Assembly: GCA_031288415.1 (NCBI GenBank)
Contig: JAITRL010000298.1
Location: forward strand, 7,262 to 71,261
Direction of reading: 5' to 3'
Source: Deltaproteobacteria bacterium
GTDB taxonomy: Bacteria > Desulfobacterota > Desulfarculia > Adiutricales > Adiutricaceae
DNA: 64,000 nucleotides
Part shown: piece by piece, positions 11,049 to 48,414 of the stretch
Numbering within the stretch: the stretch's first letter is position 1
Layout: every line of letters begins with the position of its first letter
The notes under the pieces: model-generated
The model's input: the letters and a program-made list of their open reading frames with translations, nothing else
The model's database searches: none
Told to the model about the DNA's origin: nothing
Position numbers and translations under genes: made by a program

Positions 11049-12000
11049 CTTAGGTCCGCGCCTCCTTCACGCTCCCTACCGCAGGGCCTGGCAGCCTGCA
11101 GGAAGGGGATTTTTTCGGACACAAGGCTCAAGGCTCAAGGCGCCCCTGGCGGCTCCTTAGGACAGTGAAGCGGCCTGAGGCATCGGAAGGGTTCGGCGCG
11201 GGGGGGGCGCCGCGGGCGCCTATAAAAACTTTACCACCGTTAAGGGCGACAAGGTTCCAGAGGCATCGAAGGGCGCGCGGGGGGCTGGCTGCAGTGAAAG
11301 ATATCCCTGCGGCCGAACCGGGTCCGAGCAACCCCTAGGCGGGAGGGGCCGCAGGAACGCAAGAGGGACTTTCGGTGGGGCGCTGGCAGGAAAGGCGGCC
11401 TTGATGGCCCCGAGGGCCTCCGGGTGAGGCCTTCGGCTGCAACCGGAGGCAGGGCCTGGTTGGCCGAACATTTCAGGACGGTCATGAGGGTCGTCTATGG
11501 CGCGGGCATACCGATAGGTTAAATGTACCACCCTTTCGGTCAGCCGACAAGGCCCTTGGCTCAGTGCAGCCGCAAACGCCCCCTGCCTCGCTTCGGAAGG
11601 CGTTCAGGCTCGAGGTTCCCAGTCTCCGCTAAGCCTCCTCCCGAAAAGAGAGGCGGAAAACGGACCGAAGACCTCTGGAGGACCCGGGCGCGCCTCAGCA
11701 GGCCACCGGCAGCCTCCCGCAGGTCGCGGGCTAAATCGCCTCCGCCTGGGGACGGCCTTTGACAAGCTCCGCTTCCTCGTAAGATCCGCCCCGGATTATC
11801 GGCTCACCGCCGCTCCGGCCCGTCTGGAGCCCAAGGTTCGCCTGCTTCCTTGCTCCTCTGCGGTTACGCGCCTCGGCGCCTCTGTTCCCTTTGCTTTTAG
11901 CAACCCTGGCTTTAGCCTCTCTGCCCGTCTGCTCCTTTGCCTATCCGCCTCCTAGACCCTTTGCAACTCTTATCTCTTTCACGCACACTCTCTCTTTCGG

Positions 12001-12135
12001 TTACTCTTTCTTTTATTCTTTCTTTTACTCTTTCTTTTACTCTTTCTTTTACTCTGTCTTTTACACTTTCTTTTACTATTTCTTTTAATCTTCTTTTACT
12101 CTTTCTTTTACTCTTTCTTTTACTCTTTCTTTTCC
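12001..12135. repeat. 12-bp tandem repeat (TTACTCTTTCTT)n, about 11 copies, the core of a ~470-bp G-depleted pyrimidine-rich tract
   Basis: Read directly: ttactctttctt ttattctttctt ttactctttctt ... with few substitutions. The flanking sequence 11960-12440 continues as degenerate C/T-rich sequence. Confidence 0.9.
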
Positions 12136-13237
12136 TTCTTTCATTCTTTTTCATTCTCTTTTATTTTTTAAGCTCTTTAATTTTTTGCTATTTTTTATCT
12201 ATTTTCTGTTTTGACTATTTTTTACACTTTTTTACTCTTTTTTACGTCTTTTTACTAATTTATACTCTTTTTAGCTCTCGTTTGCCCTATCTTGAACTAT
12301 TTTACCCTCTTTTACTTTCTATTTCTCTCTTTTACTCTCTCTCTTGCTGTCTTTTTTACTCCTTCTCGTTCATTGTTTTGCTCTCTCCCTCTTCCTACCT
12401 TTCGCCCCCCCTCTCCATCCCCCCCCTCTCTCTCTTTCTCGTTCACGTTCGTTCTGTAGCTCCTGCGCTCTGAGCCCTCAGCCGGAATATCTGGTTCCCT
12501 GCGCTATCAGGGCAGTTTCCCAGGGCCTCCCGGTTTGGGGGGTAGCCCCTGGCCCGTCAGGCGGTTCTCCAGACCCTGCAAGGCACAATGCCCGGGCTCT
12601 TTTAAGGAGCAGCACTGAGCCCTTCCGGGCTGTGTCCTGACCTTTCCTCAGGGCCACTTAAGGGCCTTATGGCTGGCTGCCGGAGCTGTCCGGAATCTCC
12701 GGAACTCGGCGGCGCCCCCTCCCGCAGGCCGCTGCCGCAGACGGCGAGGGGGCTCAGGCCAAGCAACGCGGCCTTTGCCGCCCGTAGCCTCGCGAAAACC
12801 GCCTCGAGGAGGGCGCTCTTGCGCGGCCTTAGGCCGAAAGCTTTCCCGGACCCCAGCCGGGCCGGGCCGGTACGGCAAGGCGCCTTTCAGCTTGCCCCAG
12901 GCCCCCGTAACGGAGGGCAGGCGCGGAGACGCGAGACAACCCCTACGGGCGGCAGGGGCGCCGGGATGTTCAGCCTGCGGCAACGCGCCTCCGAGAACGA
13001 GGCAAGCCGCGGCACGCCACTGGGCGGCGGCGCGCGTGAATCCCCAGGTGATCGCCGGCGGCTCAGCCGTAAGGCGGCGCACATGCTCCTGACGCATCTG
13101 CGGGCGCGGCCGGCCCGGGGCCTGCAGGGCCGCTCTGAGCAGTGCGCCTGCCGATGGCCCTGCCGACGGCCCTGCCGACGGCCCTGCCGAGGGCCGCGCA
13201 CCCAGTGGGTCCTTGAAGCAAGGGAGAATGACGGTTC

Positions 13238-16200
13238 TCAGGCCCCTTTGGAGTCGATTTCGGCCGCGGAGCGTGATTCCGGGCCGGCCTCGGGGTCAGG
13301 GGGCGTTCCGGGGCCGGAGGGGACGCCCGCGCCAGGGGCGGCGTCGCTATGCGCCTGCCCGCCGCCGTTGCCCGCGCCGCCGCCGGGGGCCTTGATCCAC
13401 TTGTTGAGGGCGTTGAAGAGGGCGTCCAGGTTGATGGGCTTGGTGATGTGGTCGTTCATGCCCGCCGCGAGGCTCAGGTCGCGGTCCCCGCTCATGGCGT
13501 GGGCGGTCATGGCGACTATGGGGAGCGACTCGTAGCCGGGCAGGGCCCTGATGGCCCGGGTGGCGGTGAGCCCGTCCATTTCGGGCATCTGGATGTCCAT
13601 GAGGACCAGGGCGTAGTCCTTGGCCTGGACCTTTTCGAAGGCTTCCCGGCCGTTGTTGGCTATGTCCACCTCGAAGCCCGCGTTCTTGAGGAGCTTGCGC
13701 GCCACCAGCTGGTTGACCTCGTTGTCTTCTGCCAGGAGTATGAGCGAGCCCTTCAGGTGAGCCACCTTGGCGGCGTCCATGACCTGGGGGCGCCTGGCCT
13801 TGCGGGGGCGCCTGGCCTTCTGGCCCAGGGCCTCGCCGATGGCGGAGGCCAAAGAGGTGGCCACCACCGGTTTGGGGATGACCACGCGGATGCCCGCTTC
13901 CAGGGCCCTGGGGGCGATCTCGTCGCGGTCATGGGAGGTGGCGATGAGGAAGGCCGGGCAGCGTTCCGCCGGCACGGCCTCGCGGATGCGCCTCGCGGCC
14001 TCTATGCCGTCCCAGCCGGGCATGCGCCAGTCGAGGATAGCCACGTCCACCGCGGGGGGCGCCGCCAGGCCCGCGCGGATGATCTCCAGGGCCTCGGCGC
14101 CGGAGGCCGCGGTAAGCACTCCCTTGAGGCCCAGGGACCTGAGCTCCTCGCGGATGACCAGGAGCGCCGGCTCGTAGTCGTCGACGGCCAGGGCGGTGAG
14201 GGACCTCAGATCCTCCTGCGGGGTCGCGTAGCGGCGCTTGCCGTCCAACACCCCGAACATGGCGGTGAAATGGAACGTGCTTCCCTTGCCGGGCGCGCCC
14301 TCGCACCAGATCCTGCCGCCCATCATCTCGGCCAGCCTCCTGGAGATGGCCAGCCCCAGGCCCGTGCCCCCGAAGCGGCGCGTGACCGAGGTGTCGGCCT
14401 GGTTGAAGGCGGTGAACAGCTTGCGGATCTGTTCCTCGGTAAGCCCGATCCCGGTGTCCTGGATGCTGAACTTGAGGATGGACTGCCCCTTGCTCTCCTG
14501 AAGCACCTCGATGGAAAGGGTGACCCGCCCCTTTTCCGTGAACTTCACGGCGTTGCTCATGAGGTTGTTGAGGATCTGCCCCAGGCGCAGGGGATCCCCC
14601 TCCAGGGAGGTGGGGGTGTCGGGGCTCACCGAGAGCAGGAGCTCGAGGCTCTTCTCGTTGGCGCGGACCACCACGAGGTTCAGCGAGGAGTCGATCACCT
14701 CCTCGAGCTGGAAGCCGATGCGCTCCATGGAGAGTTTGCCGGCCTCTATCTTGGTGAAGTCGAGGATGTCGTTGATGATGCCCAGCAGGCTCCGGGCGGC
14801 GGAGGCCGTCTTCTCCAGGTAGTCGCGCTGGACTTCGGTGAGATCCGTCTGGAGGGCAAGCTGGGTGAGGCCCACGATGGCGTTCATGGGGGTGCGGATC
14901 TCGTGGGACATGTTGGCCAGAAACTCGCTCTTGGCCTTGGCCGAGTCCTCGGCGATGTCCTTGGCGAGGGCGAGATCCCTCGCGTTCTCCCGCAGCTCCG
15001 TAACGTCCGTGAACCACGTCATCACCCCGCGCCGGCCGTAGTAGTCCGAGGCGAAGGCGTTGACCAGCACCTCCCTGGCGGCCCCGTCCATGCGGTAGAC
15101 CTTCATGGGGCGCCAGTTGAGGCTCTCGCCGGCGTCAAGATCGCGCAGGGCATCCTCGAGCTCCTCGCGCATCGCGAAGCAGCGGTAGAGGCTGTCGCCC
15201 TCCTTCATGCCCAGGTAGCTTTCGGCGAACGGCGTCATGAAGGCGATGAAGCCGTCCAGGGAGATGGTGAAGCACAAGGGGCAGGAGTCGAGGATCCGCT
15301 TGAAGAGGGCCCTCTCCCGCTCCAGGTCGACCTGGGCCTCCCTGAGCTTCAGGGTGCGCTCATCCACCAGGCGCTCGAGATCGCGGTTGAGGGCCCGGTT
15401 GCGGCGGTTCGCGAAGACGAGGGCGATAAGCGCGGCGAACAGCGCCGCCATGAACAGGGCGATGAAGGGAGCCGTGTCCTTGAGGAACTTGCGGTTGTAG
15501 TCGAACATGCGCGAGTTCCAGCGCTCGTTGATCTGGGTCACCGGGATAAGGCCGGCGGCCTTGCCCACCACGTCCCGGACCGCCAGGTCCCCCGTGCCGA
15601 AGGCGAAGCCGAAGGGCACGCGGTACTCGAAGATGAGGCCCGCCTTGAAGTTGGGGTCCTCGCGGTAGTTGGTGAGCGACAGGAGCAGGTTCGTGGACCC
15701 CATCACGAACATGATGTCCCCGCGCTTCAGGGCTTCCAGGGCCAGGTCCAGGTCACGGTACCAGATGATGTTGCGGCTGCTGGGGAACCATTTGCGGAAA
15801 AGCTCGCTCCGGCGGTCGCCGCGCACGAGCCCCACGGTCCCGTAGAAGAGCTGGTCGAACTTGATCTCCGGGCTCTCCAGGCGGGTGAGCAGGGCGAAAC
15901 GGTCCCAGGAGTGAGGGCGGGGGGAGCGCACCAGGCCCATCTGGTCCTGGTACATGAAGTTGTAGGCGGCCAGCATGTCCGCATCCCCCGAGAGGGCCAT
16001 GGCCTCGAGTTCCTCGGTGGGGGTCCCGGGGGGGTTGACGATCTCGAACTCGATCCCCGCCAGGCGGGAGATCTCGGCGAGGGAGTCATGGGCGATGCCC
16101 TGGAAGGCCCCCGCGCGCTCGTCCCAGAAGCTCACCGGGTAGTCGTCGGAATCGGCCGCCACCCGGATACGCGCCCCCTCGTCCTGGAAGCGCCAAAGCA

Positions 16201-17128
16201 GGGCGCGCTGCCCGGCCGTGAGGCCCCGCTCGAAAAGGTCGCGCTGGTTGCCCAGGCTGGCCTCCGCGTAGAGCCGGGAGAGGTACTCGTCGCCCCCCGC
16301 CAGGATGAACTTCCTGACGATGCTGACGACGGGCGCCAGCTCCCGGTTGGATGTGGCCAGCACCAGCGGCAGATCCACGGGCGGGAAGTAGTCCTCCGCG
16401 CTGATGTCCTCGTAGGCGTCGAAGAACGGCAGGGCGCTGGAGTCCTCGAAAAAGGCATCCATGGTGCCTGAGGCGAGCCGGTCGGCCGCCTCGGCGTAGG
16501 ATGTGACGGACACGCCCTCCGCCGGAAAGCCGCTGGCCCTGAGGACCCGCTCCCGGAGGCCCGTGCCCGGCAGGAACCCGAAGACCGGACGTCTCCGGGA
16601 GGAGAGGACCCTGAGGTCTTCCGTGCCCCGGAGCTTGAAAACCTTGACGATGCGCTCGTAGATGGGCGGAGTCAGGTACAGCCCCTTGCCAGCCTCTTCC
16701 GTCAGCTCCAGCTCGCTCGCGAAGTCCAGCCACCCCTCGAGGAGGGCCGTGTTGAGCTCGCCGCGCTCGTAATAGGCGTGCCGGAACTGGATATGGAGCA
16801 TCTCCGAGAGGAAACCGGTGAAGGCGATGAGGAAGCCGGCGGGCCTCCCGGCCTGGTCCTGGTAGGCCTCGGCGCTCCGCATGGTCCCGAAGCTCAAGGG
16901 CCGCCCCTGGGCCTGCAGGGCCTCGACCGCGTTGATCTCGGCCGGGGTGACCCCGGGGATGGTCCGGAAGTCCCGGATGTAGGTGGGTACGGCATCCTCG
17001 TCCCGGTGATTGAGGGCCTGGGGCTCGCAGGAAGTCAGGAGGGCCAGGGCGGCCGCCGCCAGGGCCGGGGCGACGGTCAAGGACAGCGGCCCGGGCCGGG
17101 CACGGGACAAAATCCGGGACGGCGCCAT
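13238..17128 (-). CDS. Hybrid sensor histidine kinase/response regulator (two periplasmic SBP-like domains, TM, PAS, HisKA, HATPase_c, REC, REC)
   Basis: - H-box FLANMSHEIRTPMNAI.
- N/G boxes NLMSNAVKFT, DTGIGL and GGTGLGLAIS.
- Two receiver domains (ILDWRMPGWDG and LMDIQMPEMDG).
- The start at Met104 (17128) gives a signal or lipoprotein-like N-terminus. The ORF extends to 17437 but that part is junk-like and overlaps cstA. Confidence 0.85.
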   Translation of the reverse strand: MAPSRILSRARPGPLSLTVAPALAAAALALLTSCEPQALNHRDEDAVPTYIRDFRTIPGVTPAEINAVEALQAQGRPLSFGTMRSAEAYQDQAGRPAGFLIAFTGFLSEMLHIQFRHAYYERGELNTALLEGWLDFASELELTEEAGKGLYLTPPIYERIVKVFKLRGTEDLRVLSSRRRPVFGFLPGTGLRERVLRASGFPAEGVSVTSYAEAADRLASGTMDAFFEDSSALPFFDAYEDISAEDYFPPVDLPLVLATSNRELAPVVSIVRKFILAGGDEYLSRLYAEASLGNQRDLFERGLTAGQRALLWRFQDEGARIRVAADSDDYPVSFWDERAGAFQGIAHDSLAEISRLAGIEFEIVNPPGTPTEELEAMALSGDADMLAAYNFMYQDQMGLVRSPRPHSWDRFALLTRLESPEIKFDQLFYGTVGLVRGDRRSELFRKWFPSSRNIIWYRDLDLALEALKRGDIMFVMGSTNLLLSLTNYREDPNFKAGLIFEYRVPFGFAFGTGDLAVRDVVGKAAGLIPVTQINERWNSRMFDYNRKFLKDTAPFIALFMAALFAALIALVFANRRNRALNRDLERLVDERTLKLREAQVDLERERALFKRILDSCPLCFTISLDGFIAFMTPFAESYLGMKEGDSLYRCFAMREELEDALRDLDAGESLNWRPMKVYRMDGAAREVLVNAFASDYYGRRGVMTWFTDVTELRENARDLALAKDIAEDSAKAKSEFLANMSHEIRTPMNAIVGLTQLALQTDLTEVQRDYLEKTASAARSLLGIINDILDFTKIEAGKLSMERIGFQLEEVIDSSLNLVVVRANEKSLELLLSVSPDTPTSLEGDPLRLGQILNNLMSNAVKFTEKGRVTLSIEVLQESKGQSILKFSIQDTGIGLTEEQIRKLFTAFNQADTSVTRRFGGTGLGLAISRRLAEMMGGRIWCEGAPGKGSTFHFTAMFGVLDGKRRYATPQEDLRSLTALAVDDYEPALLVIREELRSLGLKGVLTAASGAEALEIIRAGLAAPPAVDVAILDWRMPGWDGIEAARRIREAVPAERCPAFLIATSHDRDEIAPRALEAGIRVVIPKPVVATSLASAIGEALGQKARRPRKARRPQVMDAAKVAHLKGSLILLAEDNEVNQLVARKLLKNAGFEVDIANNGREAFEKVQAKDYALVLMDIQMPEMDGLTATRAIRALPGYESLPIVAMTAHAMSGDRDLSLAAGMNDHITKPINLDALFNALNKWIKAPGGGAGNGGGQAHSDAAPGAGVPSGPGTPPDPEAGPESRSAAEIDSKGA

Positions 17129-17420
17129 GGTCCGGGACAGGCTCTCGCGGCCAGGGGAAAGCGGGCGCCCGCCCGCGCGCGCGCCGCGCCCGAGGAGAGG
17201 CGGGCGCGGGAGGCGGAAAAGGCGCAAACAGCGCAGAAAGCGCCGGATTGCCGGGAGGCCCGGCAGGCACAGCGCGCCCAGGAAGGCCAAGGCGCGTATC
17301 AGGCGCGAAGGGCGGCCGCTCCTGCAGGGCCCGCAACGGGAGCCGGGGCCGGGGCCAAAGGCCTCGCCGGCGAAGGCCCTCAGCGGGCCCCTGGCGCCGG
17401 CCGGACTTATGTGGGAGCCC

Positions 17421-19265
17421 CTAGGCATGGAGGTCATGGTCCACGGCCAGGGCGAGCACCTTTTCCCCGAAAGGATCCGTCACTGTCGTCTTCACCCGCA
17501 AAAGCGTTATCCATCTGAGCACGGTCATGACGAAGACTGAGGCCACGAGCAAGACCACCAGAATTCCCAGCCCCGCCAGGACCCACTGGCCCGCAGGTAT
17601 GTAGGAGCCGGTAATCTGGATGGCCCCCGCCCAGAGACAGATGACCGCCATGAAGATCCCGGGCGCGCCCGTGGTCCACGCGTAGCGGGCCCGGCCCATG
17701 CGGATAAGCATGCTCGTCGCGATCAAGAGGGCGCAGGAGGCCAGGAGCTGGTTGCACATGCCGAACAGCGGCCAGATGGTGAAGATGTCCCCCGTCATCA
17801 CGAGGTACCCCCACAGGGCGGTGAAGGCGACCGAGGTGATCACGATGCCCGGCCACCAGCCGCGTCTGGCGAAGCTGGGAAAGAAGCGGCCCAGGGCCTC
17901 CTGGAGGAAGAAGCGCCCCACGCGCGTGCCGGTGTCCACCGCCGTGATGATGAAGACCGCCTCGAACATGATGCAGAAGTGGAACCAGTAGGACACGAGC
18001 CCGGTCATGTACGGCACGGAGGAGAAGATGACGCTCATGCCGGCGGCCAGCGTCACGGCCCCGCCGGGGCGGTTGGCGAGATCCTCGCGCACCGCGGCGG
18101 AGAGGGCCGGGAGATCCACGGTCTCCATGCCCAGGGCCGCGAACTTGTCGGCCGAGGCGGTGATGGCGAAATAGTCGGCGGGGACCAAGGTGGCCGCGGC
18201 GATAAGGGCCATCACGGCCACGAAGCCCTCGGTGAGCATGGCGCCGTAGCCCACGAAGAGGATATGGCCTTCGCTGGCCAGGAGCTTGGGGGTGGCGCCG
18301 GTCCCGATGATGGCGTGGAAACCCGACAGGGCCCCGCAGGCGATGGTGATGAACAGGAAGGGGAAGATGGGGCCGGGAACGTTGGGCCCGCCCCCCGAGA
18401 CGAACTCCGTCACCGGGGCCATCTGCAGGCCGGGCCTGACAATGGCCAGGGAAACGGCCAGGATCGCCAGGGTGCCGATCTTCAGGTAGCTGGAGATGTA
18501 GTCCCTGGGGGTCAGGAGGAGCCAGATGGGCAGGACAGAGGCGATGCAGGCGTACAGGGGGATCAGCCAGTTGAGGGTGCCGTGCGGCAGCGCGAAGAAC
18601 TGGCCGAGGACCCGGTGCCCCGCCACGTACGGTCCCGCGAGGATGGCCGCGATCAGGAACGCCACGCCCGCGGCGGTCACGAGCCTGACCCGGCCCGGCA
18701 GCCAGAATTTCAGGCACAGGCCCATGAGGAGGGCGATGGGGATGGTGGCCGCCACCGTGAAGGTGCCCCAGGGCGAGTCGCTCATGGCGTTCGCGACCGA
18801 GATGGAGAGCACCGCGAGCGTGAGCACCAGGATGAAGAACACCGCCAGGAAGGTGGCCGTGCCGGCGAAGCGCCCGATCTCGGCCTCGGCCACGTTGGCG
18901 ATGCCTCGGGCCTTGTGCCGCACCGAGGCGAAAAGTATCACCATGTCATGGACCGCGCCGGCCACGACGCAGCCGACGATGATCCACAGGGCTCCCGGCA
19001 TGTACCCGAACTGCACCGCCAGGACCGGCCCCAAGAGCGGGCCCGCGGCGGAGATGCTCGCGAAGTGGAAGCCGAAAAGCACGGTCTTGTCCGTCTTCAC
19101 GAAGTCCACCCCGTCCTCGTTGAGGGCGGCGGGGGTGGGCCGCGAGGGGTCAAGACGCAGCACCTTCCTGGCTATCCAGAGGCCGTAGAAACGGTATCCA
19201 ACGGCGAACGCGCACATGGCGACGAAAGCCAGGGTGAGGGCGTTAAGGCCGTTTAACGACTGCAC
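17421..19265 (-). CDS. cstA: Carbon starvation protein A family transporter (peptide/pyruvate uptake)
   Basis: 614-aa polytopic membrane protein with a CstA-typical N-terminus (YRFYGLWIARKVLRLDPSRPTPA...FGFHFASISAAGPLLGPVLA) and the expected overall length. Confidence 0.9.
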   Translation of the reverse strand: MQSLNGLNALTLAFVAMCAFAVGYRFYGLWIARKVLRLDPSRPTPAALNEDGVDFVKTDKTVLFGFHFASISAAGPLLGPVLAVQFGYMPGALWIIVGCVVAGAVHDMVILFASVRHKARGIANVAEAEIGRFAGTATFLAVFFILVLTLAVLSISVANAMSDSPWGTFTVAATIPIALLMGLCLKFWLPGRVRLVTAAGVAFLIAAILAGPYVAGHRVLGQFFALPHGTLNWLIPLYACIASVLPIWLLLTPRDYISSYLKIGTLAILAVSLAIVRPGLQMAPVTEFVSGGGPNVPGPIFPFLFITIACGALSGFHAIIGTGATPKLLASEGHILFVGYGAMLTEGFVAVMALIAAATLVPADYFAITASADKFAALGMETVDLPALSAAVREDLANRPGGAVTLAAGMSVIFSSVPYMTGLVSYWFHFCIMFEAVFIITAVDTGTRVGRFFLQEALGRFFPSFARRGWWPGIVITSVAFTALWGYLVMTGDIFTIWPLFGMCNQLLASCALLIATSMLIRMGRARYAWTTGAPGIFMAVICLWAGAIQITGSYIPAGQWVLAGLGILVVLLVASVFVMTVLRWITLLRVKTTVTDPFGEKVLALAVDHDLHA

Positions 19266-19350
19266 TTTGTTCCACTAAGTTGGCCGCCGGGGCTGCCGCC
19301 GGCGCGCGGCGTAAAGGCTTAAGAGGCATCAAGAATCGAGGGGGCCCGGG

Positions 19351-19448
19351 CCCAAAGGCTCGAGGGGGCCCGAGCCCAAAGGCTCGAGGGGGCGCAAGGC
19401 CCAAAGGCTTGAGGGGGCGCAAGGCCCAAAGGCTTGAGGGGCTCAAGG
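19351..19448. repeat. 24-25-bp tandem repeat x4 (CCCAAAGGCTYGAGGGGGCSCRAGG), 86-183 bp upstream of the cstA start
   Basis: Units at 19351, 19375, 19400 and 19425, read directly. A degenerate fifth copy lies just upstream (about 19311). Confidence 0.85.
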
Positions 19449-19905
19449 GACTCCGGGCCGGCCAACAGCCGGCGCGCGGCTCCCCAGGGGACGGCGCATC
19501 CGGCGCCGGGCCTTGCCTGTTCAGGCCGGGCGCCCCGCCAGAAGCCTTCCGGCGCCCTGAAAATTCCCCGGAACCTTCAAGCCGCGGCGGAGCCCGGAAT
19601 ACCTCCGCTCCTGCCGCCCCCCTAAACTGCCCCGGATTCTCAAAAATTTTCCCGAAGGCCTGCGGGGGGCTGCCGGTTCCTCCAAATCCTCCGGAATTCT
19701 GTCCGGCCGAAGCGGATGGCTTCTTCAGAAGCCCTAAGGGCGGCTCCGCGCCGGTCCCAAAATGCGGCGGGGCGGCTCTGGAGGGCGCGGAAAGCGCCAG
19801 GCCGAAAGGCCCGCCCGAGCCCGGGAGGTATCCTTGTCCTCCTCCAGCAACCAGCCTTTCGCCCCCGGGCGGCTATTCGAACGGATAACCATTTTGGCCC
19901 TGTAA

Positions 19906-20605
19906 TTGTACAGAACTGTTCAGCAACTCCAGTAAACCTGACGGGGAGTTGTACAAGACAGGACAGCAACTACGCAGATTTTAACAAAGAGTTGTACAAA
20001 GCGGTGCAAACTTTTCGAAACGAGGCTCAACAGTTGGCCTGATTATAATGAAAAGCTGTACAAGGCAGTTTAAAAGTTGTTCATTAATTTAGCAGAAATT
20101 ATGGGATATCAAAAACAATTATATTATTTTAATATCGAGTTGTAGCGGACAGGACAGCAATAATTCGAGGGCTGTGGAAATATTGTACAAAACAGAACAA
20201 CGGGTAACATAGTCCAGAGCAGATATTGTACAAGACTGATCCGAAGGAACCCAAGGGCAGAGCAGATGTTGTACAAGGCAGATCCGCAGTAACTCAAGGG
20301 CAGAGTCAAGTGTTGTACAAGACAGAACCTCAAGAACTCAAGGATTGTACAGGGTCTGTACAATGCGTGAAAAATTGTTCCCCAAAGGCGCTAGAAACAG
20401 GAGGCGGGTCTGCCCGCCAAAGCAGGACAACGCAAAAACTGAGTTGTGCGAGATTGCCTGAAGTTGTACAAAGGTGATCGGATGTTGTACAAGTGAATTT
20501 TAGAATTGTGCAGTGCAGATAGCGTGTTGTACAAGACTAAACAGGAACTGAACTAGGGGTTGAGCAGGGGTGAGCAAAGCGAAAAGTACAAGCTGTAGCT
20601 GTACG
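19906..20605. promoter_or_regulatory. Phased array of TTGTACAA palindromes (iteron, centromere or operator-like) in a low-GC block
   Basis: - Perfect TTGTACAA at 19949, 19992, 20183, 20226, 20269, 20313, 20464, 20485 and 20527.
- One-off variants at 19906, 20056, 20345 and 20356.
- Degenerate copies at 20140, 20444 and 20506.
- The spacings are 43/44 bp or 20/21 bp, or sums of these. Confidence 0.85.
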
Positions 20606-21196
20606 GTAAAAATCCGAAGCCGGGCAAGTGCGAAAGCAGGGCAAGAACTTTTCTGGGGTCCTCCCGAAAAAAACCCGTCCGGGCCGCCTGCCGCTACAAA
20701 AACCCTGTCGGCCGAACGCCAGGGCCGCAGAAGCCCCTGACATCGGCCCTGAGGCGCCGGGGACCCTGCCGCCGCAGGAAATGCCGAAGGCCGCGAGTCG
20801 GCGCAACCAAGGGAATCCGCTAATCAGGGAAGACCGAAAGGCCAGGGGCCGCCAGATCGCGCCTTACGCCCCGCGCCTTCTGCGGGAAAGCCTGAAGGCC
20901 GCTTGCCCTTGCCCCCACCGGGTTTCGGGCTTTCCGAAAGCCTTAAGGCGGCCTCAACAGGACCCGGGGCGAGCGCTTCCGCAGGCAAAGCCGAATTAAG
21001 GAAGCCGGCTTGCCGCCCAGGCGAGGCGCATGACCTGACGAGGCTCCGCATGTTTAACAAAATAGCACATGGTCGCCTGTAATCCAATACGTTACGCAGG
21101 CTGGAAAGCCAGCCGCGCCTCCGCCGGCGGCTCTCCTAGAGACCCGCCGGCGGCCGCTCACGGGCCGCCCCCGGCGGCATCGGCCGCCGGGCGGCA

Positions 21197-21226
21197 TTGA
21201 CAGCCTTGAAAATCCTGTGCTAGCTT
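21197..21226 (+). promoter_or_regulatory. Candidate sigma70-type promoter (TTGACA-18 nt-TAGCTT) ending 7 nt before the ATG at 21233
   Basis: TTGACA at 21197-21202 and TAGCTT at 21221-21226. The -10 box is weak. If used, the transcript would be nearly leaderless. Confidence 0.25.
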
Positions 21227-21232
21227 CTCCCC

Positions 21233-21922
21233 ATGCGGAAGAGCATCTTCGTCATAACGCTTCTGGCAAGCTCCTTTCTTCCTCCTTCCTGGGGCCTCGC
21301 CTCCTTGAAGGGCACGGCCTTCTGTTGCGCCGATCCCCTCCTGGCCGCATCCGTTCCCGCAGAGGCCCAGGCTCTCCCTGACCCTCCCCCGCAAGCCTCC
21401 TTGCCCGCGCTCCTCGGCTCTGGCCCTGGAGCTGACCTGTCGGCCTCAGCCCAGCCGTCGGCCGCAGCCGGCCAAGACACTCACGGCGGCCGCCATGCGG
21501 GCCCCGCCGCTCACCGCGACCGCCAAGATTCCCCCGCGGCTCACGAGAGCCGCCATGCGGGCCCCGCCTCTCACGGCGACCGCCAAAATTACCCTGCGGC
21601 TCACGAGAGCCCCCATGCGGGCTCCGCCTCTCACGGCGATCGCGGCCATGTCCCGGCCGGCCGCGTCGCAAACAGCGCCAACCACGCCTCGGGCCCTGCC
21701 GGCGACCCCGCCTCACGGAGCCATGAGCTGCCCTCAGAGGACGCCGCGCAGGCCGGGCATCCTTCATGCGGCCTTCTGAGCTGCGCGCAGGCCCCTACGG
21801 CGGCCATGCCTGAAGCCTTCCCCTTTATGCTGCAAGCCGCCGCGGCAACTTCCTTCCCCGCCCTCGAACTCGCCCGCCTTTCGCCTTTTCCCCCCGCCCT
21901 ATTCCATCCTCCACGCCCCTGA
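21233..21922 (+). CDS. Candidate secreted histidine-rich repeat protein (possible periplasmic metal-binding protein)
   Basis: - Signal-peptide-like N-terminus MRKSIFVITLLASSFLPPSWGLASL.
- About 2.8 copies of a 20-aa unit (H-E-S-x-H-A-G-P-A-S-H-G-D-R-Q-x-x-P-A-A).
- It lies upstream of the cus genes on the same strand.
- Coding status is uncertain, because spurious ORFs are common in high-GC DNA. Confidence 0.35.
   Translation: MRKSIFVITLLASSFLPPSWGLASLKGTAFCCADPLLAASVPAEAQALPDPPPQASLPALLGSGPGADLSASAQPSAAAGQDTHGGRHAGPAAHRDRQDSPAAHESRHAGPASHGDRQNYPAAHESPHAGSASHGDRGHVPAGRVANSANHASGPAGDPASRSHELPSEDAAQAGHPSCGLLSCAQAPTAAMPEAFPFMLQAAAATSFPALELARLSPFPPALFHPPRP
21480..21650. repeat. 60-bp tandem repeat, about 2.8 copies (encodes the His-rich units)
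   Basis: Units 21480-21539, 21540-21599 and 21600-21650 (partial) are near-identical on direct reading. Confidence 0.85.
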
Positions 21923-32340: not shown

Positions 32341-34941
32341 GGGCGCTCCTGTGCCGGCCGGTGGGGCTTTCCGGCCTGCCTTCCCGCGGCTTGCCGAAGC
32401 TCCCCGCGGCCGGCGCCGTGGCCCTGCCGAGCCTTGCGCATGCTCCGGAAAAAAAAGGCCTCGGCGCCGGCCGCGGGGCATGGGGGACGAGATAAAATTC
32501 GCCTTCCGTCATGTCCCCCGCGTCAGACGGGCGGGGCAGGGCCGGCGACGCGCAACGCCTCTCCGGCGCGCAAGGGCCCGCGGAACAGAACAGTTCGGGA
32601 GAGCGCGCGCTCATGGTTTCCTCGGCTTGAGCCAGGGGATTCCGGGGAGCGACGGGACGGGCAAGGCGCCGGCAAGGCGGCCGGGACTTCGGGGGGCTTG
32701 CCGGCAGGCTTGAATGATGACTCTACTCCAGGAAAACCCGCAAGGCAACCTGACAAGCCGCCGCCCGCCGCGGCCGCGCGCGGCCCGGAAGCGGCCGGGC
32801 CGGCCGCAGGGTTCGGCATGCGCCCCATGCGCCCGCGGATACCGTTCCGGCGGCCAGGCTCACGGGCGCGCCGGGTCCGAACGCTTAAACGACCCGATTT
32901 CCGCGCGTCTCTTTCGCCTCGTTTTTGTAAGACCGTCTCCCGAAACCGGCTGAACCCCAACATGAAATGCGCGTCGTCGAAAGGCGCGTCATAGCCGGAG
33001 GGCGGCCGAGCCCAAGCAGGCCGCGCGGCCGGCCGGGCGCATCCCCTGAAACATCGGGGTTCCCGCGGCTCTCCGGAAGGAGGCGCATGCTCCCTCCGTG
33101 AAGCTCCCGGCCTTCGGGTCCTTCACGGCGAAAAGCCTCCTCCGGACACGGCCGGGCTTTCCCCTGCCGGCCGCGCGCCGCGGAATCGGCCGAGGCGCCG
33201 CGGCCGCCCCGGCAGGTTATTTCTCACGGCCGCCTGGCTCGCGCCCCCAATGCCGCGCCCGCGCGGCGGATTTTCCGGCAGTTCCGGGGCGGGCCGCTTT
33301 CGGAAATGCCTTGTCGCGGGCCTAAGTCATTTTCCGCCGCTGAAGACCGAGCCGGCGCCCGGGCTTGCCTCGCCCCGCGACGCGCCTGGGCCGCCTGCCG
33401 AAGCCCGTCACGTCGGGGGCGATCCGCCCGATTTTCATCAGGCCGGAACTTCCTGAGCGTCTCGCGGCGCCGCCGATAAGGCCGGCCCGGCCCCGGCTCC
33501 CGCTGAGGAACCTCGCGGCGGAAGCGCCGCTTTTCCCCTGAGGGCGGGCCGGCGCTTTCGCGGCAAAACTTTTCGCCCGCCTGTTCACCCGCAAGTCGCC
33601 CGCGAACACTGGCGGCTTTACCGCCCTGCGGTCCCCGCGCCGCGCGATCGGCACGGACCCCTGCGGCAAGCGCCTTTTGCGGAACCTGCCCTGGCCGGCC
33701 AAGAGAAGCCCGGGCAGGCTCCCTTGCGCGCGGCCGCGCGCCGGCCGCGCCCGGGGCCGCTCGTGAGCCTGTACCGCGGGATGGAGAACTGCCGCCGGCC
33801 GGCATATTCAACGCGGCCCTGAGAGAAATCAAGCGGAGACGTTCCCTCTGGCGCCCCGCTCCTTCCGTTCCCTGCGGATGCCTCCCCGCGCCTCCCGCCC
33901 CGCGCGGCCCTAAATCCGGGTGGAGGCCCTGCGGCCGCTGAAGCCCTGCAAGGCGCGTCTTCAGTTCCGGGCGCCGCCGGCCCGGCAAAACCCTTGACCC
34001 GGCCCCCCGGGCCGTACTCCAAGGGCCGGCCGACAGGCAACGGCCCGGAGGGCCGGGCCGGATATCAGCCTTTTGCCGACAAGGCGCCCGACAGCGGGAA
34101 GGCCGAACAGACTTGGAAAGCCCTGTTGCAATCCTTCCGGCACATTGTTAAGCTTTTCAGCGGAAACTGCGGCGGCCCCCTCCGCGCTTATGTTTCCGGA
34201 CCGCTTCAGCCCTCCCGGCCTTTTTTGGGGCCTCTTTGTCAGTAGCCGTGTCCCTCGGCTAGAGGCATGATTTATAATTTATTGGAGTTTAAGCCTTACC
34301 TTATGAATTTAAGCTATCTAATATCTTTCAAAAATTTTGTAAATATATATAATTTATATAAAATAATTTCTTCTCATTGATGTTTTCCTGTAGTCCTCCC
34401 CCTATCTGACCTGACGCCTGACCGCCCAAAACAAGCCCCGCCCGCTGCCGGCTCGCTGGCGCAGCCCCTGCCGCCGCCCGGCACAACCTTCCGAATGCGG
34501 GCCCGATGAACGCGCCTCTGCACTGCCGGATAAGCCTTTGCCGGAGGCAGTCCCGTGACGGCCGGCCTGCCGGGCCGGGCGACGGCTTTCAGCCGCAGCC
34601 TTCCGCCGGCGTCCCCTCATGCATCCCCACGGGCCGAATCCGCAAGGGCTCCGCAAGCCCCGCACCGCCCGGCCCGCAGGGCGGCCAGGCGGAAACTGGC
34701 CTAAGGCTCTGCCAAGCCCCGCAGGCCGACTGCGGCATGGAAGGTTTGGCCTCGCCGGCGCAGGCGGCCGGCCGCCTGCCGGGCACAGGAATTGCGGAAC
34801 GCCCCGCAGGCCTGAAAGCCTGAACGGGGACCGGATGATCCGGAAATACCGCCAGACGGCCGGCTCGTCCCGGGGCTTCGGGGCCGGTTCCCTTGTTTCC
34901 GCGTCAATGACGTCAAATATACGGCGGCCGCCGCGACGGAG

Positions 34942-36201
34942 ATGCGCATGGACGAAGAAACCGCCAAAGACAAAACACGCGCCCCGGCGGCTGACATTAC
35001 CAGAAATGCCTTTGACGCGGCGGGAAAATGGCTGATTTCGTATAAGACGGAAGGCCTGTATGAGATTTTCGGCATTGACTACGACCCGAACAGCGTGATC
35101 TTGAGCGCCGAGCTGCCGGTAATAACGGCCCGTATCAAGGCCGCTGACTTCGTGCGCCTCACGCCCGACAGCGGCAAGCCGATTTCGGGGCCCTGCGGGC
35201 CTGAGGCCGGGGCCGGCGGCAGGCCGGAGGCGCGCGCGCCTCAGCCAGAGCGGAAGCATGATTTGCATCTGCAGCATTTCGAGTTCGACAGCGACGGGAA
35301 AGACGGAAATATCTGGCGGTACATGACATACTCGGCGGAAATAGCAAGGAGATATAACGAGCTGTTCAGGAAAACCGACATAGACGCAAAACCCGCGGAC
35401 ATAGTCACTTACGTCGTATACGCCCCTTCAGTCACCGGCAGCCCTGCCGACGGCTACGGGGCGCGTGACAGTTCCCTGCAGTTCAACGTGAGGCAAATCT
35501 TCCTGGGCCGCCTGATCGAGCCGAACGCCATGATCGAGAGCTGCCGCGAAAAGCTGCGGAATTTGAGCGGCGCCTCGAAAGAAGACGCCTCGGTTTCCGA
35601 AAAGGAATTCGTTTCCCTGGTTTTAATCCCTTTTTTCTTCAATAACCGGCCTAAGGGGGAGCTGGAGGATTATCTGAGCCTGGTTCTTGAGCTGTCCGGC
35701 AAAATCGATGATGCCTCGCTTGCCGCGTTAGTCCTGACGGCCAGCGCTAACCAGATCGACCTTAGCCCGTTCGCGGAGGAATTCCACAGGATGTTCAACC
35801 TTGAAATTGGTGATTTAGTGACCGCCGGCGCGTATTCGGCCGCGCTCAAGGGCAAGCTGAAGGCGGAAAGGAACGCGACCGAGGAGAGAACGGCCAGGCT
35901 GGAGGCGGAAAGGACCGCGGCCGAGGCGAAAAAGACCGCGGCCGAGGCGAAAAAGACCGCGGCCGAGGCGAAAAAGAACGCGGCCGAGGAGAGACAGAAC
36001 GCGGCCGAGGCGAAAAAGAACGCGGCCGAGGAGAAAAAGACCGCGACCGAGGCGAAAAAGAACGCGGCCGAGGCGAAAAAGAACGCGGCCGAGGAGAGAA
36101 CTGCCAGGCTCAAGGCGGAAAGGCGCATTCACGAACTGGAAAAGGCCTTGGCCCTCTCGACAAGGGGCGCGGCCGATCCAGGAGGCGAGCCGGACAAGTG
36201 A
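34942..36201 (+). CDS. Rpn/YhgA-like PD-(D/E)XK nuclease family protein with a C-terminal heptad-repeat coiled coil
   Basis: - The core reads ...AADFVRL...HDLHLQHFEFDSDGKDGNIWRYMTYSAEIARRY...IVTYVVYAP.
- This parallels the Rpn pattern D...hhhhEhQS..D..M..RM..Y...P.V.PhVhY.
- The C-terminus is (AAEAKKN)n flanked by ERTARLEAER motifs.
- The assignment was made by eye only. Confidence 0.55.
   Translation: MRMDEETAKDKTRAPAADITRNAFDAAGKWLISYKTEGLYEIFGIDYDPNSVILSAELPVITARIKAADFVRLTPDSGKPISGPCGPEAGAGGRPEARAPQPERKHDLHLQHFEFDSDGKDGNIWRYMTYSAEIARRYNELFRKTDIDAKPADIVTYVVYAPSVTGSPADGYGARDSSLQFNVRQIFLGRLIEPNAMIESCREKLRNLSGASKEDASVSEKEFVSLVLIPFFFNNRPKGELEDYLSLVLELSGKIDDASLAALVLTASANQIDLSPFAEEFHRMFNLEIGDLVTAGAYSAALKGKLKAERNATEERTARLEAERTAAEAKKTAAEAKKTAAEAKKNAAEERQNAAEAKKNAAEEKKTATEAKKNAAEAKKNAAEERTARLKAERRIHELEKALALSTRGAADPGGEPDK
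35917..36100. repeat. 21-bp (heptad) tandem repeat GCGGCCGAGGCGAAAAAGAMC, about 8.7 copies, inside the Rpn-like CDS
   Basis: Units start every 21 nt from 35917, read directly. Confidence 0.9.
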
Positions 36202-36690
36202 AGGGAATGGCGCCTTCGCCGGGCCGCTTTCGCCCTGGGCCCGCCGTGCCTTTCCTGTAACCGATCCCTCGGCGGCGTCAGCGCCTGACCCGGCTGCCAA
36301 AGCGCCCGCTTCACCCGATCTCAGGATCTTGCGGGTCCTGGCGGTCCATGACGGGTTCCCGCGAGCCGCGCCCGGCCGCCCGGCGCGAGCCGGCCGGGCG
36401 GGCGGACAGCGTGAGGCGCCAGACCTGCCTCGCCTGAGAGCCATGCTCTCCCGAAGACGCCTTCAGCCGCCCCAAGCCTTGCCCGGTTGCCGGGCCAGAC
36501 CGCCGCCGCCCTCCCCGAAAGATTTTTTTTCATGCGACAGGCAAGCGCCGAACCGCTCCTGCCGCCGCGGAGAACCGGCAAGAGCCTGCGGCAATACGCC
36601 TCACCACCCCGCTCCTGGCTTCAGGGCCCGCGACAGCCTCAATACGTCTTTTGGGCGGGCACAGCACAACCGCCGGGCTTGGGGCAGGCG
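36202..36690. repeat. Copy 1 of a ~490-bp conserved non-coding segment following the Rpn-like stop codon
   Basis: It aligns by eye over almost its whole length with 38669-39170. Shared strings include GATCCCTCGGCGGCG, CCATGACGGGTTCCCGCGAGCCGCGCCCGGCCGCCCGGCGCGAGCCGGCC, CTCGCCTGAGAGCCATGCTCTCCCGAAGACGCCTTCAGCCGCCCCAAGCCTTGCCCGG and CTTCAGGGCCCGCGACAGCCTCAATAC. Confidence 0.85.
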
Positions 36691-37200
36691 CACTAGTAGA
36701 ATTATATTAACAAATCATTTAACTAAACATAAGATATCTTGCTATAATATTAGATGATGGAAACTTTAACTGCTATAGATTAATCCTATTAAAAGTTAAT
36801 CTTCTAAATATATTTAATTTTATCAATATCATAATTTATATTACTCACTTCCCTCCATGAACGTTAAAATAGAATATTATAGATTATTTTATTATATCTA
36901 TAAATTACAAAGAGCACCCTTTCGAGGTTACTAATACGTTGTCTCTTACATAAGTCATACGACTACTTCGGCAGGACTTAAAGCGCCATGTAAACACGAT
37001 CGAGAAAAATATAGCACTCATATAGCTGTAACTATTGAAAAAATATATAACTCAATCCCCTTCCCAAAAAATTCATGTTGAATGAATAACACAATCACGT
37101 CAAGTAAAAAATCAATGCAAAGTTAATTCATGAACAATTCCTTGCCGTCTCCCGGGCGCCTTCGGGCTTTATCCTGTCCGCCCCGTCTCGAGCCGTCTGG

Positions 37201-37884
37201 TTGCGGCTGTTCCGGTCGGTATTCTCTTGCGGATGGAACGGGACAGTCGGCGTTCGGCCCTTCCCGGGCAGCCCTGACGCCAGGCCCGACCCCTTGTTTT
37301 CCGCATCGGACCTGACGGCCGACAGGAACCAGATCGACCTTAGCCCGTTCGTGGGGGTATTCAACATGATGTTCGACGTTGAAATGATAGATTTCTTGCT
37401 AGACGGCAAGTATACAGCCGCTATCAAGGGCAAGCTGGAAGCGGAATTGCACTTGGCCGAGGTGATAACGGCCAATCTGGAGTGGGATTTGCTCGCGGCC
37501 AAGAAGAGAACATCCAGGCTGAAAGCGGAAGTACTCATGGCTAGGGCGGAATCGCCCACGGCCGAGGCGAGAACGGCCAAGCTGAAGACGGATTTGCTCG
37601 TGCCCAAGGCGGAATCGCTCACGACCGAGGCGAGAACGGCCAAGCTGAAGACGGATTTGCTCGTGCCCAAGGCGGAAATGCGCGCGGCCGCGGCGAGAAC
37701 GGCCAAGCTGGAGGCGGATTTGCTCGTGGCCAAGGCGGAAATGCGCGCGACGGAGGCGGAATTGCGCGCGGCCGCGGAGAGAACGGCCAGGCTGGAGGCG
37801 GAAAGGCGCCTTCGCGAACTGGAACGGGCCGTGGACCTCGCAGCAAGTGACGCGGCCGATCCAGGATACGGGCCGGACAAATAA
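37201..37884 (+). CDS. Rpn-like C-terminal-only paralog (cassette 2): conserved hinge block plus a different coiled-coil repeat
   Basis: - Shares SDLTADRNQIDLSPF...MMFDVE...AAIKGKLEAE and the tail ERTARLEAERRLRELERAVDL...DK with the full-length gene.
- Has no nuclease domain.
- The repeat is about 60-63 bp (ARTAKLKTDLLVPKAE...).
- The ORF track uses a TTG start. The first ATG is at 37366. Confidence 0.35.
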   Translation: MRLFRSVFSCGWNGTVGVRPFPGSPDARPDPLFSASDLTADRNQIDLSPFVGVFNMMFDVEMIDFLLDGKYTAAIKGKLEAELHLAEVITANLEWDLLAAKKRTSRLKAEVLMARAESPTAEARTAKLKTDLLVPKAESLTTEARTAKLKTDLLVPKAEMRAAAARTAKLEADLLVAKAEMRATEAELRAAAERTARLEAERRLRELERAVDLAASDAADPGYGPDK

Positions 37885-38065
37885 GGAAAATGACGCCTTA
37901 GGCGGGGGGGGGGCGCTTCGCCCTGTCCCCGCCGTGCTTTTCCTGTTGCCGATCCCTCAGCGGCCCCGGCGGCTGACCCGGAAGCCGGAGCGCCCGCTTA
38001 ACCTGACCCCTGCGGATGGAACCGGGACTGTCGGCGTTCGGCCCTTCCCAGGCAGTCCTGGCTCT

Positions 38066-38668
38066 ATGCCCGATCCCTTGCTTTCCGCATCGGACCTGAC
38101 GGCCGGCAGGCGCCTGATCGCCGTTAGCCCTTTCGTGGAGGAATTCGACAGGATGTTCGACGTTAAATTTGCGGATTCCGTGACCAACGGCGCGTATTCG
38201 GCCGCGATCAAGGCCAAGCTGGAGGCGGAAGTTTACGCGGCCAATGCGAGAACGGCCACGCTGGAGGCGGAAGTTTACACGGCAAAGGCGAGAACGGCCA
38301 TGCTGGAGGCGGAAGCTCTCTTGGCCAAGGAGGAAGCGCGCGCGGCCGAGGAGAGAACGGCCATGCTGGAGGCGGAAGCTCTCTTGGCCAAGAAGGAAGC
38401 GCCCGCGGCCGAGGCGGGAACGGCCAGGCTGGAGGCGAAACTGCTCGTGGCCAAGGCGGAAGCGCGCGCGGCCGAGGCAAGAACGGCCGGGCTGGAGACG
38501 GAATTGCTCGTGGCCAAGGCGGAAGCGCGCGCGGCCGAGGCGGAAGTGCGCGTTGCCGAGGAGAGAACGGCCAGGCTTGCGGTGGAAAGGCGCCTTCGCG
38601 AACTGGAAAAGGCCGCGGACCTCTCGGCAAGGGGCGCGCCCGGCCCAGGAGGCGAACCGGACAAGTAA
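38066..38668 (+). CDS. Rpn-like C-terminal-only paralog (cassette 3)
   Basis: - Same conserved blocks: SDLTAGRRLIAVSPFVEEFDRMFDV...AAIKAKLEAE ... ERTARLAVERRLRELEKAADL...GGEPDK.
- The repeats are 63 bp (ERTAMLEAEALLAKEEARAAE).
- The ORF is open from 37847 (GTG). The first ATG is at 38066. Confidence 0.35.
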   Translation: MPDPLLSASDLTAGRRLIAVSPFVEEFDRMFDVKFADSVTNGAYSAAIKAKLEAEVYAANARTATLEAEVYTAKARTAMLEAEALLAKEEARAAEERTAMLEAEALLAKKEAPAAEAGTARLEAKLLVAKAEARAAEARTAGLETELLVAKAEARAAEAEVRVAEERTARLAVERRLRELEKAADLSARGAPGPGGEPDK

Positions 38669-47051: not shown

Positions 47052-48075
47052 CTACATCGGGTGCAGGCGGGAGGGGGTCCGCCTGCCGCCGTAAAAGGCG
47101 TCGAGGGTTTCTGCCACGAAATGGGAAAAGGCCTCGCCCAGCATCCTCATCGTGGCGAAGGCGGCCCGCATGATCTTGAGGAAAAGGGAGCCCTCTCCGC
47201 TCCGGGCCCCGCAGCTGTTCTTCCTGTCCGGCGCCGCGCGCCTGAACGCGCGTTCCGCGGCGTCGTCCGGCGGCCCCGCGCCGGGCTTGCCGATGAACCG
47301 CAGTCAGCTCCCGTACCCCTGCCCGAACCTCTTCGCAGAAGCGTGCGCCATGGCGTTCCTTATTCTCTGGGCGCGCGCGGCGGGCCTGCCCGGCCTTTCA
47401 AACGCCTCCCTCATGAGAGCCTTGAGCCTTACGGCCTCGGGGAGGCACGGGCCCTCGAGCCCCTTGAACATCCTGTGAAACCGGAAAACGAACGCGAACT
47501 TGACGTGGGCGGCCTTTCCGAACCTCCTGATCTCCGGGTCCTGGCGACCGGCGCGGCGCCTGAACTCGCGGACAAAATGCGCGCGGCAGCGCCTGGGCTC
47601 CCGGCCGGGATGCGCCCTCGCCCGCTTCGCGCAGACGCGGCAGCGGCCGCAGGAGATCGCGCGCGGGAGCGGGTCCCTCAGGACCGATTCCAGGATCTCG
47701 CCGGAGCGGGGGCCTGTCCGGAACGGCGCCGCTTCCGCCGTCACGAGGGCACGCGTCCAGAGCGTTTTCCCATGACGCCGAGGCGTGTCCTTCTGCCTGG
47801 CGTCGGCCTCCGCGGCAAGCAGCCTGGCCTTCAGCTCGCGGATCTGGCCCTCGAGCTTCCGCGCCAGCCCCTGCGCCTGCGGCCCGCCTCCCCGAACGGC
47901 CCCCTGCCCGCCATCTCCTTCGCCTCGAGAAGGATAACCAGCTGGGCGCCGCCGCACTCGCCGGCCGTTCCTTCCAGTCGTATCCTGAAGTCGTGGAAGG
48001 CGTTCCGGTCGTAAGGGGCTTCGGACAGCCGCCGGAAGCCGACCGCAATGGCTTTTATTCCCTTTTGAATGGTTT
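47052..48075 (-). pseudogene. Transposase remnant (IS66-family-like), in-frame TGA and probably internally deleted
   Basis: - Leucine-zipper-like LEGQIRELKARLLAAEADARQ near the N-terminus.
- After the in-frame stop at about 47304, ...DDAAERAFRRAAPDRKNSCGARSGEGS... resembles the IS66 C-terminal NNxAERxLRxxxxxRKNxxGxxSxxG motif.
- Total length is only about 350 codons, and no DDE core was recognised. Confidence 0.4.
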
Positions 48076-48414
48076 TGCGGCCATAGGTCTAATATAGCCA
48101 TATATATAACTTATTAAATCTTATTTAATTATATTGTATTTGGCCTTAATTTACGTTAATCGCAGAATTATTCATACCCCAGCGCCTTCGCTTGGCCAAG
48201 CGCGTCTTCCGTACCTGTTGACATGAATCCAAAATTAAGAGACGGCAAAACTATTGCAAATCGTATGTAAAAGGGAAAGCAAAGACGAAGATAAAGTAAA
48301 ATGCGAAAAGATGTGGAGGTAACGGTCTGGGGGAGTGAACGGATACTATATTTCTGTGCGCCCGAATCCGCAGAATCCGCAGGAAACCGCGAAACCGCGA
48401 AACCGCAAAGACGT

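Follow-up and report, generated by a model that had tools for sequence, protein, structure and literature searches.

Genomic setting of the array

Our study analysed a window of 64 kb (the whole stretch of DNA under examination) from a metagenome contig of an uncultured, Desulfovibrionaceae-like bacterium. The window is chromosomal and includes genes for a release factor, cheA/cheD and sugar-nucleotide enzymes. Within it, an AT-rich block located in a variable intergenic region was found to carry an array of short sites built around the palindromic octamer TTGTACAA, between two sets of genes that are transcribed away from it (Table 1). To the left of the array lie cstA and a gene for a hybrid histidine kinase whose sensor domain is of the SBP_bac_3 type, and to the right, on the plus strand, the gene for a His-rich protein is followed by cusC, cusF, cusB and cusA. 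The first site of the array is 641 bp from the start of cstA (19265) and all sites fall 641–1270 bp upstream of it, in agreement with the distance of 640 bp given in a preliminary description of this DNA. That description had also remarked that the gene of no DNA-binding protein is adjacent, which the identity of the neighbours (cstA, the kinase, the His-rich protein and cusCFBA) confirmed. No ORF in 19266–21232 matched Pfam or PHROG, and small proteins encoded in the block were rejected on this basis. The array region contained no tRNA genes or Rfam families, and the array block displayed no coding signal.

Both flanking genes have features of their own. The His-rich ORF (21233–21922) begins with a signal-peptide-like N-terminus and contains 60-bp repeats (21489–21643) encoding HESxHAGPASHGDR motifs; its product may be a periplasmic metal-binding protein, and a stretch homologous to this ORF occurs in two relatives (L078 and L079). 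Close to cstA, a GC-rich 24/25-bp unit (GCCCAAAGGCTYGAGGGGGCGCAAG) is repeated 4.6 times in tandem at 19336–19448, 70–185 bp upstream of the GTG start, and is a better candidate than the TTGTACAA block for a promoter-proximal regulatory repeat of this gene. The clade pairs cstA with the hybrid kinase (13238–19265 in the window; SBP_bac_3 sensor and two receiver domains), and in Solidesulfovibrio magneticus a 64 %-identical cstA comes after lytT-lytS (L133 3243–7812).

Table 1. Features of the array and its surroundings, with positions in the window
Feature	Position	Strand	Description
cstA (CstA family transporter)	17421..19265	-	Left neighbour, transcription away from array
Intergenic region around array	19266..21107		1.84 kb, hypervariable
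Whole array	19906..20534	+	16 sites, rwG-TTGTACAA-GrCnGnnC, on one 21.45-bp lattice, same orientation
Sub-array A	19906..20063	+	Sites 19906, 19949, 19992, 20056; spacings 43, 43, 64 bp
AT-rich core	20081..20136		56 bp, 17.9 % GC, sites on either side
Sub-array B	20140..20343	+	Five sites at 43–44 bp: 20140 (degenerate), 20183, 20226, 20269, 20313
Perfect 21-bp palindrome	20344..20364		ATTGTACAG-ggt-CTGTACAAT; two inverted cores, 11 bp centre to centre
Sigma-70-like promoter match	20344..20373	-	-35 TTTTCA/TTCACG, -10 TACAAT; towards cstA
GC-rich hairpin	20403..20418		GGCGGGTCTGCCCGCC; in 88-bp gap between sub-arrays B and C
Sub-array C	20444..20534	+	Five sites, 20–21 bp apart; 20444 and 20506 degenerate, 20464, 20485 and 20527 perfect
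His-rich repeat protein, putative secreted	21233..21922	+	Right neighbour, transcription away from array

Organization of the array

Nine perfect copies of TTGTACAA are present in the window, all of them within the AT-rich block (starts 19949, 19992, 20183, 20226, 20269, 20313, 20464, 20485 and 20527) and none elsewhere, compared to a mean of 0.10 per 64 kb and a maximum of 1 in dinucleotide-preserving shuffles. When up to one mismatch was allowed, the window contained 15 matches, 13 of which were inside 19906–20534, compared to 3.2 expected. Together with four one-mismatch sites (starts 19906, 20056, 20345 and 20356) and three degenerate ones (20140, TTGTAGCG; 20444, TTGTGCGA; 20506, TTGTGCAG), the perfect copies make up 16 sites over 620 bp, with site-to-site spacings of 43, 43, 64, 84, 43, 43, 43, 44, 32, 11, 88, 20, 21, 21 and 21 bp. 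These copies, starts and distances were all reproduced exactly as first described, and so was the statement that the octamer is expected well under once per 64 kb and is not seen elsewhere in the window. The composition was likewise close to the earlier estimates of ~40 % GC for the block, ~18 % for a ~56-bp stretch inside it and ~68 % for the surroundings, the measured values being 43.1 % (19906–20605), 17.9 % (20081–20136) and 66.5 % (window-wide). Tandem Repeats Finder recovered the 43–44-bp tandem repeats as a 43-bp unit with 3.0 copies and an 83 % match at 20215–20343, a copy number that is possibly inexact in a short-read metagenome assembly.

All 16 sites are held by one lattice of 21.45 bp, each no more than 2 bp from a node over 620 bp, and this register persists through unrelated spacers, the AT-rich core and the 88-bp gap. 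Phase coherence was expressed as the resultant length R, for which a value of 1 means that every site is in phase. R was 0.97 at 21.45 bp for the nine perfect sites and 0.90 at 10.7 bp for the 13 sites with at most one mismatch, the latter being reached by none of 3000 random placements, and the lattice values overall (0.84–0.97) were matched by at most 1 in 3000. The proposal of a ~21.5-bp lattice on one face of the helix is upheld.

The repeated unit was found to be asymmetric: G is favoured at -1, +8 and +12 and C at +10 and +15, although a fully palindromic site would have C at +8. The sites are thus head-to-tail direct repeats of ~19 bp, rwG-TTGTACAA-GrCnGnnC, with a palindromic core, and the term palindrome, which the preliminary description had applied to the array, is correct for the core but not for the full site. 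One pair of sites (20345/20356) is inverted and forms the 21-bp palindrome at 20344–20364, inside which falls the -10 (TACAAT) of the sigma-70-like match. This match is the sole one in 19200–21300, with 2 found against 0.3 expected. A sigma-54 promoter at 19895 was rejected, as the match is without the invariant GC of the -12 element.

The sub-arrays differ in how the unit is deployed. In sub-array A, the units at 19906 and 19949 have CAGCAACT in common at +15. The odd lattice nodes of the 43-bp part (sub-array B) bear KAACYCAAGGGCAGAG, which makes the 43-bp unit a dimer of the ~21.5-bp unit whose halves have diverged. Sub-array C is the tightest cluster and the most iteron-like part of the array, and the AT-rich core looks like a candidate DNA-unwinding element. 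On the minus strand, the hairpin in the gap between sub-arrays B and C weakly resembles a terminator.

Pairwise identity was 85 % for the core and 36–39 % for the flanks, compared to 27 % for random 12-mers from the block, and the identity of spacers between sub-arrays was at the random level. A conserved core among decayed spacers suggests that the array has been under selection as a binding site, rather than being the product of a fresh duplication.

Distribution among relatives and other genomes

Five syntenic cstA loci were recovered from relatives, in which CstA is 72–81 % identical and the cstA–kinase pair is kept; the cus operon is present too at three of the five (L078, L079 and L132). 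TTGTACAA was not found upstream of cstA at any of these five loci, and the array is missing from all of them. A comparison of the cstA–cus region in relatives had been proposed earlier, with a lack of conservation counting against a functional element, and on this point the outcome went against it. Similarity between the window and the relatives ends at the cstA start (19264) and returns at 21108, and the length of the cstA intergenic region is 0.8, 1.8 or 4.6 kb depending on the lineage. Two relatives harbour unrelated AT-rich insertions with small ORFs in this region, none of which matched Pfam; in relatives, AT-rich insertions that have nothing in common recur at the cstA–cus intergenic locus, which is a hot spot for them. 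The absence of the array from five syntenic loci, taken with the variability of the intergenic region, shows the array to be lineage-specific and to sit in a hypervariable spot.

Searches beyond the relatives did not recover a related array, either in 185 579 representative genomes or in a metagenome scan. Comparison by blastn of the block, its parts and the whole intergenic region with 72 556 plasmids and 50 697 phages revealed no similarity at any setting. The representative genomes contained 77 loci with three TTGTACAA cores on a 43-bp lattice, none of them in the Desulfovibrionales. These loci were mostly Bacteroidota tandem repeats, three were one orthologous Sorangium repeat, and their units have only the 8-mer in common with the array in the window. 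The metagenome scan, which looked for pairs of the extended site, returned 47 loci with periods of 15–46 bp, some of them eukaryote-like, and these are ordinary tandem repeats. As controls, three palindromes matching TTGTACAA in composition (TTCATGAA, TTGATCAA and AACATGTT) were counted in viral contigs and generated 6, 6 and 4 loci on a 21-bp lattice, compared to 6 for TTGTACAA itself. As the controls were as frequent as TTGTACAA in these contigs, TTGTACAA arrays elsewhere are best seen as background tandem repeats to which the search design is open, and a widespread family of such arrays was rejected on this evidence and on the sharing of the 8-mer only. Within the window, where it is confined to the array, the motif is also not a common, generic repeat, a concern raised in the preliminary description; elsewhere, the frequency of TTGTACAA arrays is no higher than that of the control palindromes.

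Some of the loci recovered are of interest in themselves. Three Sorangium species share an orthologous GC-rich 43-bp tandem repeat of 4–5 copies with TTGTACAA in each (L021 3800–4030, L025 7460–7650 and L063 1390–1560), which is located just 3' of a histidine kinase gene and precedes a gene for a small cytochrome c by ~170 bp. In several Bacteroidota genomes, one hairpin-containing tandem unit of 42–43 bp is present at multiple loci and constitutes a dispersed repeat family, as seen in Tannerella forsythia (L003, L018, L053 and L069) and Flavobacterium sp. PLA-1-15 (L006, L013, L023 and L024), with up to 16 copies of a 42–43-bp hairpin unit in Flavobacterium sedimenticola (L016 3640–4300). Phage contigs carry non-coding arrays of TTGTACAA or TGTACAAT with a 20–22-bp period (L136 3630–3750, L137 4197–4320 and L138 10500–10700, the last being the same as L140). 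The only informative neighbour among these is a DUF5906/VapE-like primase-helicase encoded by L137. These arrays probably serve as iterons of phage origins or operators, and nothing was seen that connects them to the window.

Interpretation of the array

The structure of the array is striking and statistically solid, yet it is unconserved. We tentatively favour the explanation that proteins bind to this array, which would be an iteron- or centromere-like orphan specific to the lineage and probably a remnant of a mobile element. The block would then be a dense binding platform for one sequence-specific DNA-binding protein encoded elsewhere. Each ~19-bp unit would present a TTGTACAA core suiting a dimer or two-fold recognition, together with an oriented GrCnGnnC flank, and, because the units recur every two helical turns, the bound proteins would lie on one face of the DNA, from where they could polymerize or wrap DNA. 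Proteins and array would thus form a single nucleoprotein complex, in the same way as such complexes are assembled by plasmid and phage iterons and by partition centromeres. A plasmid or phage would most probably have left the array in the hypervariable intergenic spot, where the presence of its binder in the cell may have preserved it, at least until recently. Protein binding, the derivation from a mobile element and any activity in replication, partition or titration are inferred. The architecture is already known, while the sequence of the array and its status as an orphan on a chromosome are new.

The preliminary description had read the block as an iteron, centromere or operator-like element; the general anatomy of phased binding sites fits this reading, but each of the named models fails on a defining feature. 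With regard to iteron origins, which are characterized by at least three oriented repeats of 17–22 bp about two helical turns apart, the array offers 16 sites of ~19 bp, five of them at 20–21 bp. Like mini-F ori2/incC, P1 incC/incA, RK2 oriV, pPS10 and lambda ori, it has oriented ~19-bp repeats every two turns, more than 10 copies split into tight and looser clusters, a very AT-rich segment between clusters and an inverted repeat with the iteron core over a promoter-like site. Mini-F and pPS10 pair their direct iterons with an inverted operator having the same iteron core, an arrangement that the array mirrors, and the 14 iterons of P1 and the twelve 43-bp repeats of F sopC are similar to it in site number and period. 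In contrast to iteron origins, the array is located on a chromosome, 300 bp separate its AT-rich segment from the tight cluster, and there is no initiator gene, DnaA box, IHF site or similarity to plasmid or phage sequence. No DnaA box with up to one mismatch was found in the block, the best match having two mismatches, and the block contained no IHF site consensus, parS or dif. The likeness to an iteron origin that had been proposed stands for the repeats, the AT-rich segment and the inverted pair, but as an iteron origin proper the array falls short, with no initiator gene, either adjacent or among the ORFs tested, and no DnaA box of this quality.

A comparable result was obtained for partition centromeres, in which tandem binding repeats are exposed on one helical face, as they are in the array given its 43- and 21-bp periods and the coherence at 10.7 bp (R=0.90). 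As in F sopC, R1 parC, pB171 parC and tubC, a 43-bp period runs through much of the array, with a short inverted repeat in each unit, and a dozen or more sites on one face make the nucleation of a higher-order complex possible. Compared to sopC-like centromeres, the array site combines an 8-bp core and an asymmetric flank, whereas theirs is a 16-bp inverted repeat. No parA/parB, parMR or tubZR genes adjoin the array. The suggested likeness to sopC applies to the 43-bp period and the inverted core, but the array falls short of a sopC-type centromere in that parAB genes are missing and the units are not near-identical.

The inverted, core-sharing pair over the only promoter-like match may be counted in favour of an orphan binding array. 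This explanation is weakened by the absence of rep, par, integrase and transposase genes among the ORFs tested across the 64-kb window, by the lack of plasmid or phage similarity and of a related array in the scans, and by the AT-rich islands common in this lineage, in view of which low GC is by itself no proof of foreign origin. To our knowledge, orphan phased arrays are hardly documented beyond model plasmids. Should a binder exist, the locus would represent a clean natural case of a long, strictly phased array alone on a chromosome, away from replication and partition genes, and orphan arrays of this kind could titrate plasmid or phage proteins or organize DNA locally. The 19-bp unit can be used as a probe for a matching plasmid, phage or regulator in the source metagenome. 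Should there be no binder, the array would simply add to the lineage-specific repeats of a genome in which both repeats and AT-rich islands are plentiful.

Alternative explanations

A local operator or enhancer array is a possible, if doubtful, alternative, in which a repressor or activator would loop or coat the DNA and control the divergent cstA and His-rich/cus promoters, and a distal cstA promoter would have the inverted pair at 20344–20364 for its primary operator. The location in a divergent promoter region is consistent with this, as is the position of the pair over the -10 of the sole sigma-70-like match, which faces cstA. LytTR regulators offer one precedent. Their sites (BtsR/YpdB, AgrA and, at cstA in Desulfovibrio vulgaris, DVU0596) are imperfect direct repeats of 9–10 bp separated by 12–13 bp and have a direct-repeat period of 21 bp, similar to that of the array, where 20444–20534 contains such repeats in one orientation at a spacing of 20–21 bp. 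Moreover, a LytTR regulator acts on cstA genes in D. vulgaris (PMC3333781), and a CstA-family gene adjoins the array, just as cstA adjoins lytT-lytS in S. magneticus. Against this, LytTR systems use two to three repeats within ~200 bp of the promoter, whereas the 16 sites of the array, over 620 bp and 640–1270 bp from cstA, far exceed any LytTR or toxin–antitoxin operator in number and distance, and the core is palindromic. No LytTR domain was found in the 64 kb, a tblastn search with the S. magneticus LytTR regulator recovering only a receiver domain (63325–63684), and TTGTACAA does not occur upstream of cstA in S. magneticus (Desulfovibrionaceae, lytT-lytS-cstA). As a LytTR array the block falls short in the regulator gene missing from the window, the excess of sites and their distance from cstA; of the similarity first noted, the 21-bp direct-repeat period fits.

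The second precedent for an operator is provided by the YefM-YoeB and Phd-Doc systems, as palindromes with a TGTACA core, which the array shares, are proven operators of YefM-YoeB; in Escherichia coli the L repeat (TCATTGTACAATGA) contains TTGTACAA, the S repeat is CTGTACAA, and paired cores lie over a -10 box as they do in the array (PMC1802561). However, such operators have their paired cores 12 bp apart from centre to centre and no more than 80 bp from a yefM or phd start codon, whereas the pair at 20345/20356 is separated by 11 bp, and there are 16 sites rather than two. No YefM or Phd homologue was identified in the window by tblastn with YefM and Phd query sequences, and the array falls short of a YefM/Phd operator in the spacing of the pair and in the lack of an antitoxin gene, whether downstream or elsewhere in the window. 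For an operator array in general, it is also unfavourable that five syntenic relatives with the cstA–kinase pair do without the array, and that cstA possesses promoter-proximal repeats of its own (-70 to -185).

It is rather unlikely that the array is a functionless satellite, that is, a decaying 21.5/43-bp tandem repeat created by slippage within an AT-rich intergenic island, the lattice being merely inherited from its duplication history. Part of the array is truly tandem (43 bp, three copies, 83 % match), tandem repeats and AT-rich islands abound in the window and in relatives, the relatives lack the array, and TTGTACAA arrays outside the window are ordinary tandem repeats that control palindromes equal in frequency. 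However, neutral decay should affect core and spacer alike, whereas core identity is 85 % with spacers near random and nine cores are perfect. In addition, the register is maintained within 2 bp over all 620 bp without any net gain or loss of bases, even where the intervening sequence is unrelated, and slippage cannot create an inverted pair of copies.

An orphan iteron or centromere array on the chromosome that is functional in trans appears improbable. It could serve as a decoy, titrating or handcuffing an initiator or partition protein that belongs to an invading plasmid or phage, or as a nucleation site for an undescribed chromosome-organizing protein in an uncultured Desulfovibrionaceae lineage; the decoy version, if true, would amount to a passive, protein-free defence based on incompatibility.

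Three further readings, as a replication origin of the chromosome, a fork barrier of the terminus type or a gene for a structured non-coding RNA, are in our view very improbable. Genes diverge from the block, the GC skew switches sign there, RNA folding z-scores reach -2.7 and -4.2, and the number and density of sites recall the DnaA-box clusters of high-GC oriC, but the skew tracks gene orientation, as coding strands are C-rich on both sides, the block is without DnaA boxes, dif and parS, an origin or terminus would not be missing in five syntenic relatives, and the folding signal is what repeated self-complementary 8-mers yield anyway, with no Rfam match.

Other AT-rich islands and repeats in the window

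Several other AT-rich islands are present in the window, among which only the TTGTACAA array is unique. A second repeat island at 11990–12380, which separates the 3' end of the hybrid kinase gene from the gene beyond it, has 27 % GC and a strongly pyrimidine-rich plus strand (GC skew -0.73), and consists of ~30 copies of a 10–12-bp unit (TTTTACTCTTTC/TTTTTTACTC). Further intergenic islands at 36690–37140, 48070–48160 and 34260–34380 display GC contents down to ~25 % and no obvious repeats. Sharp AT-rich islands are shared by relatives, one example being a stretch of 6 % GC near 11754 in L078. The region at 4400–6600 of the window, with 42–49 % GC, contains a 553-aa ORF (4947–6608, minus strand) that showed a weak match to AAA_22 and none to PHROG, and may be a foreign gene. 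Long in-frame tandem repeats of 21/42/63 bp, rich in Ala, Glu, Lys and Arg codons, were seen at 35861–36094 and 37545–38561 in ORFs without a Pfam match; these repeats probably encode coiled-coil repeat proteins.
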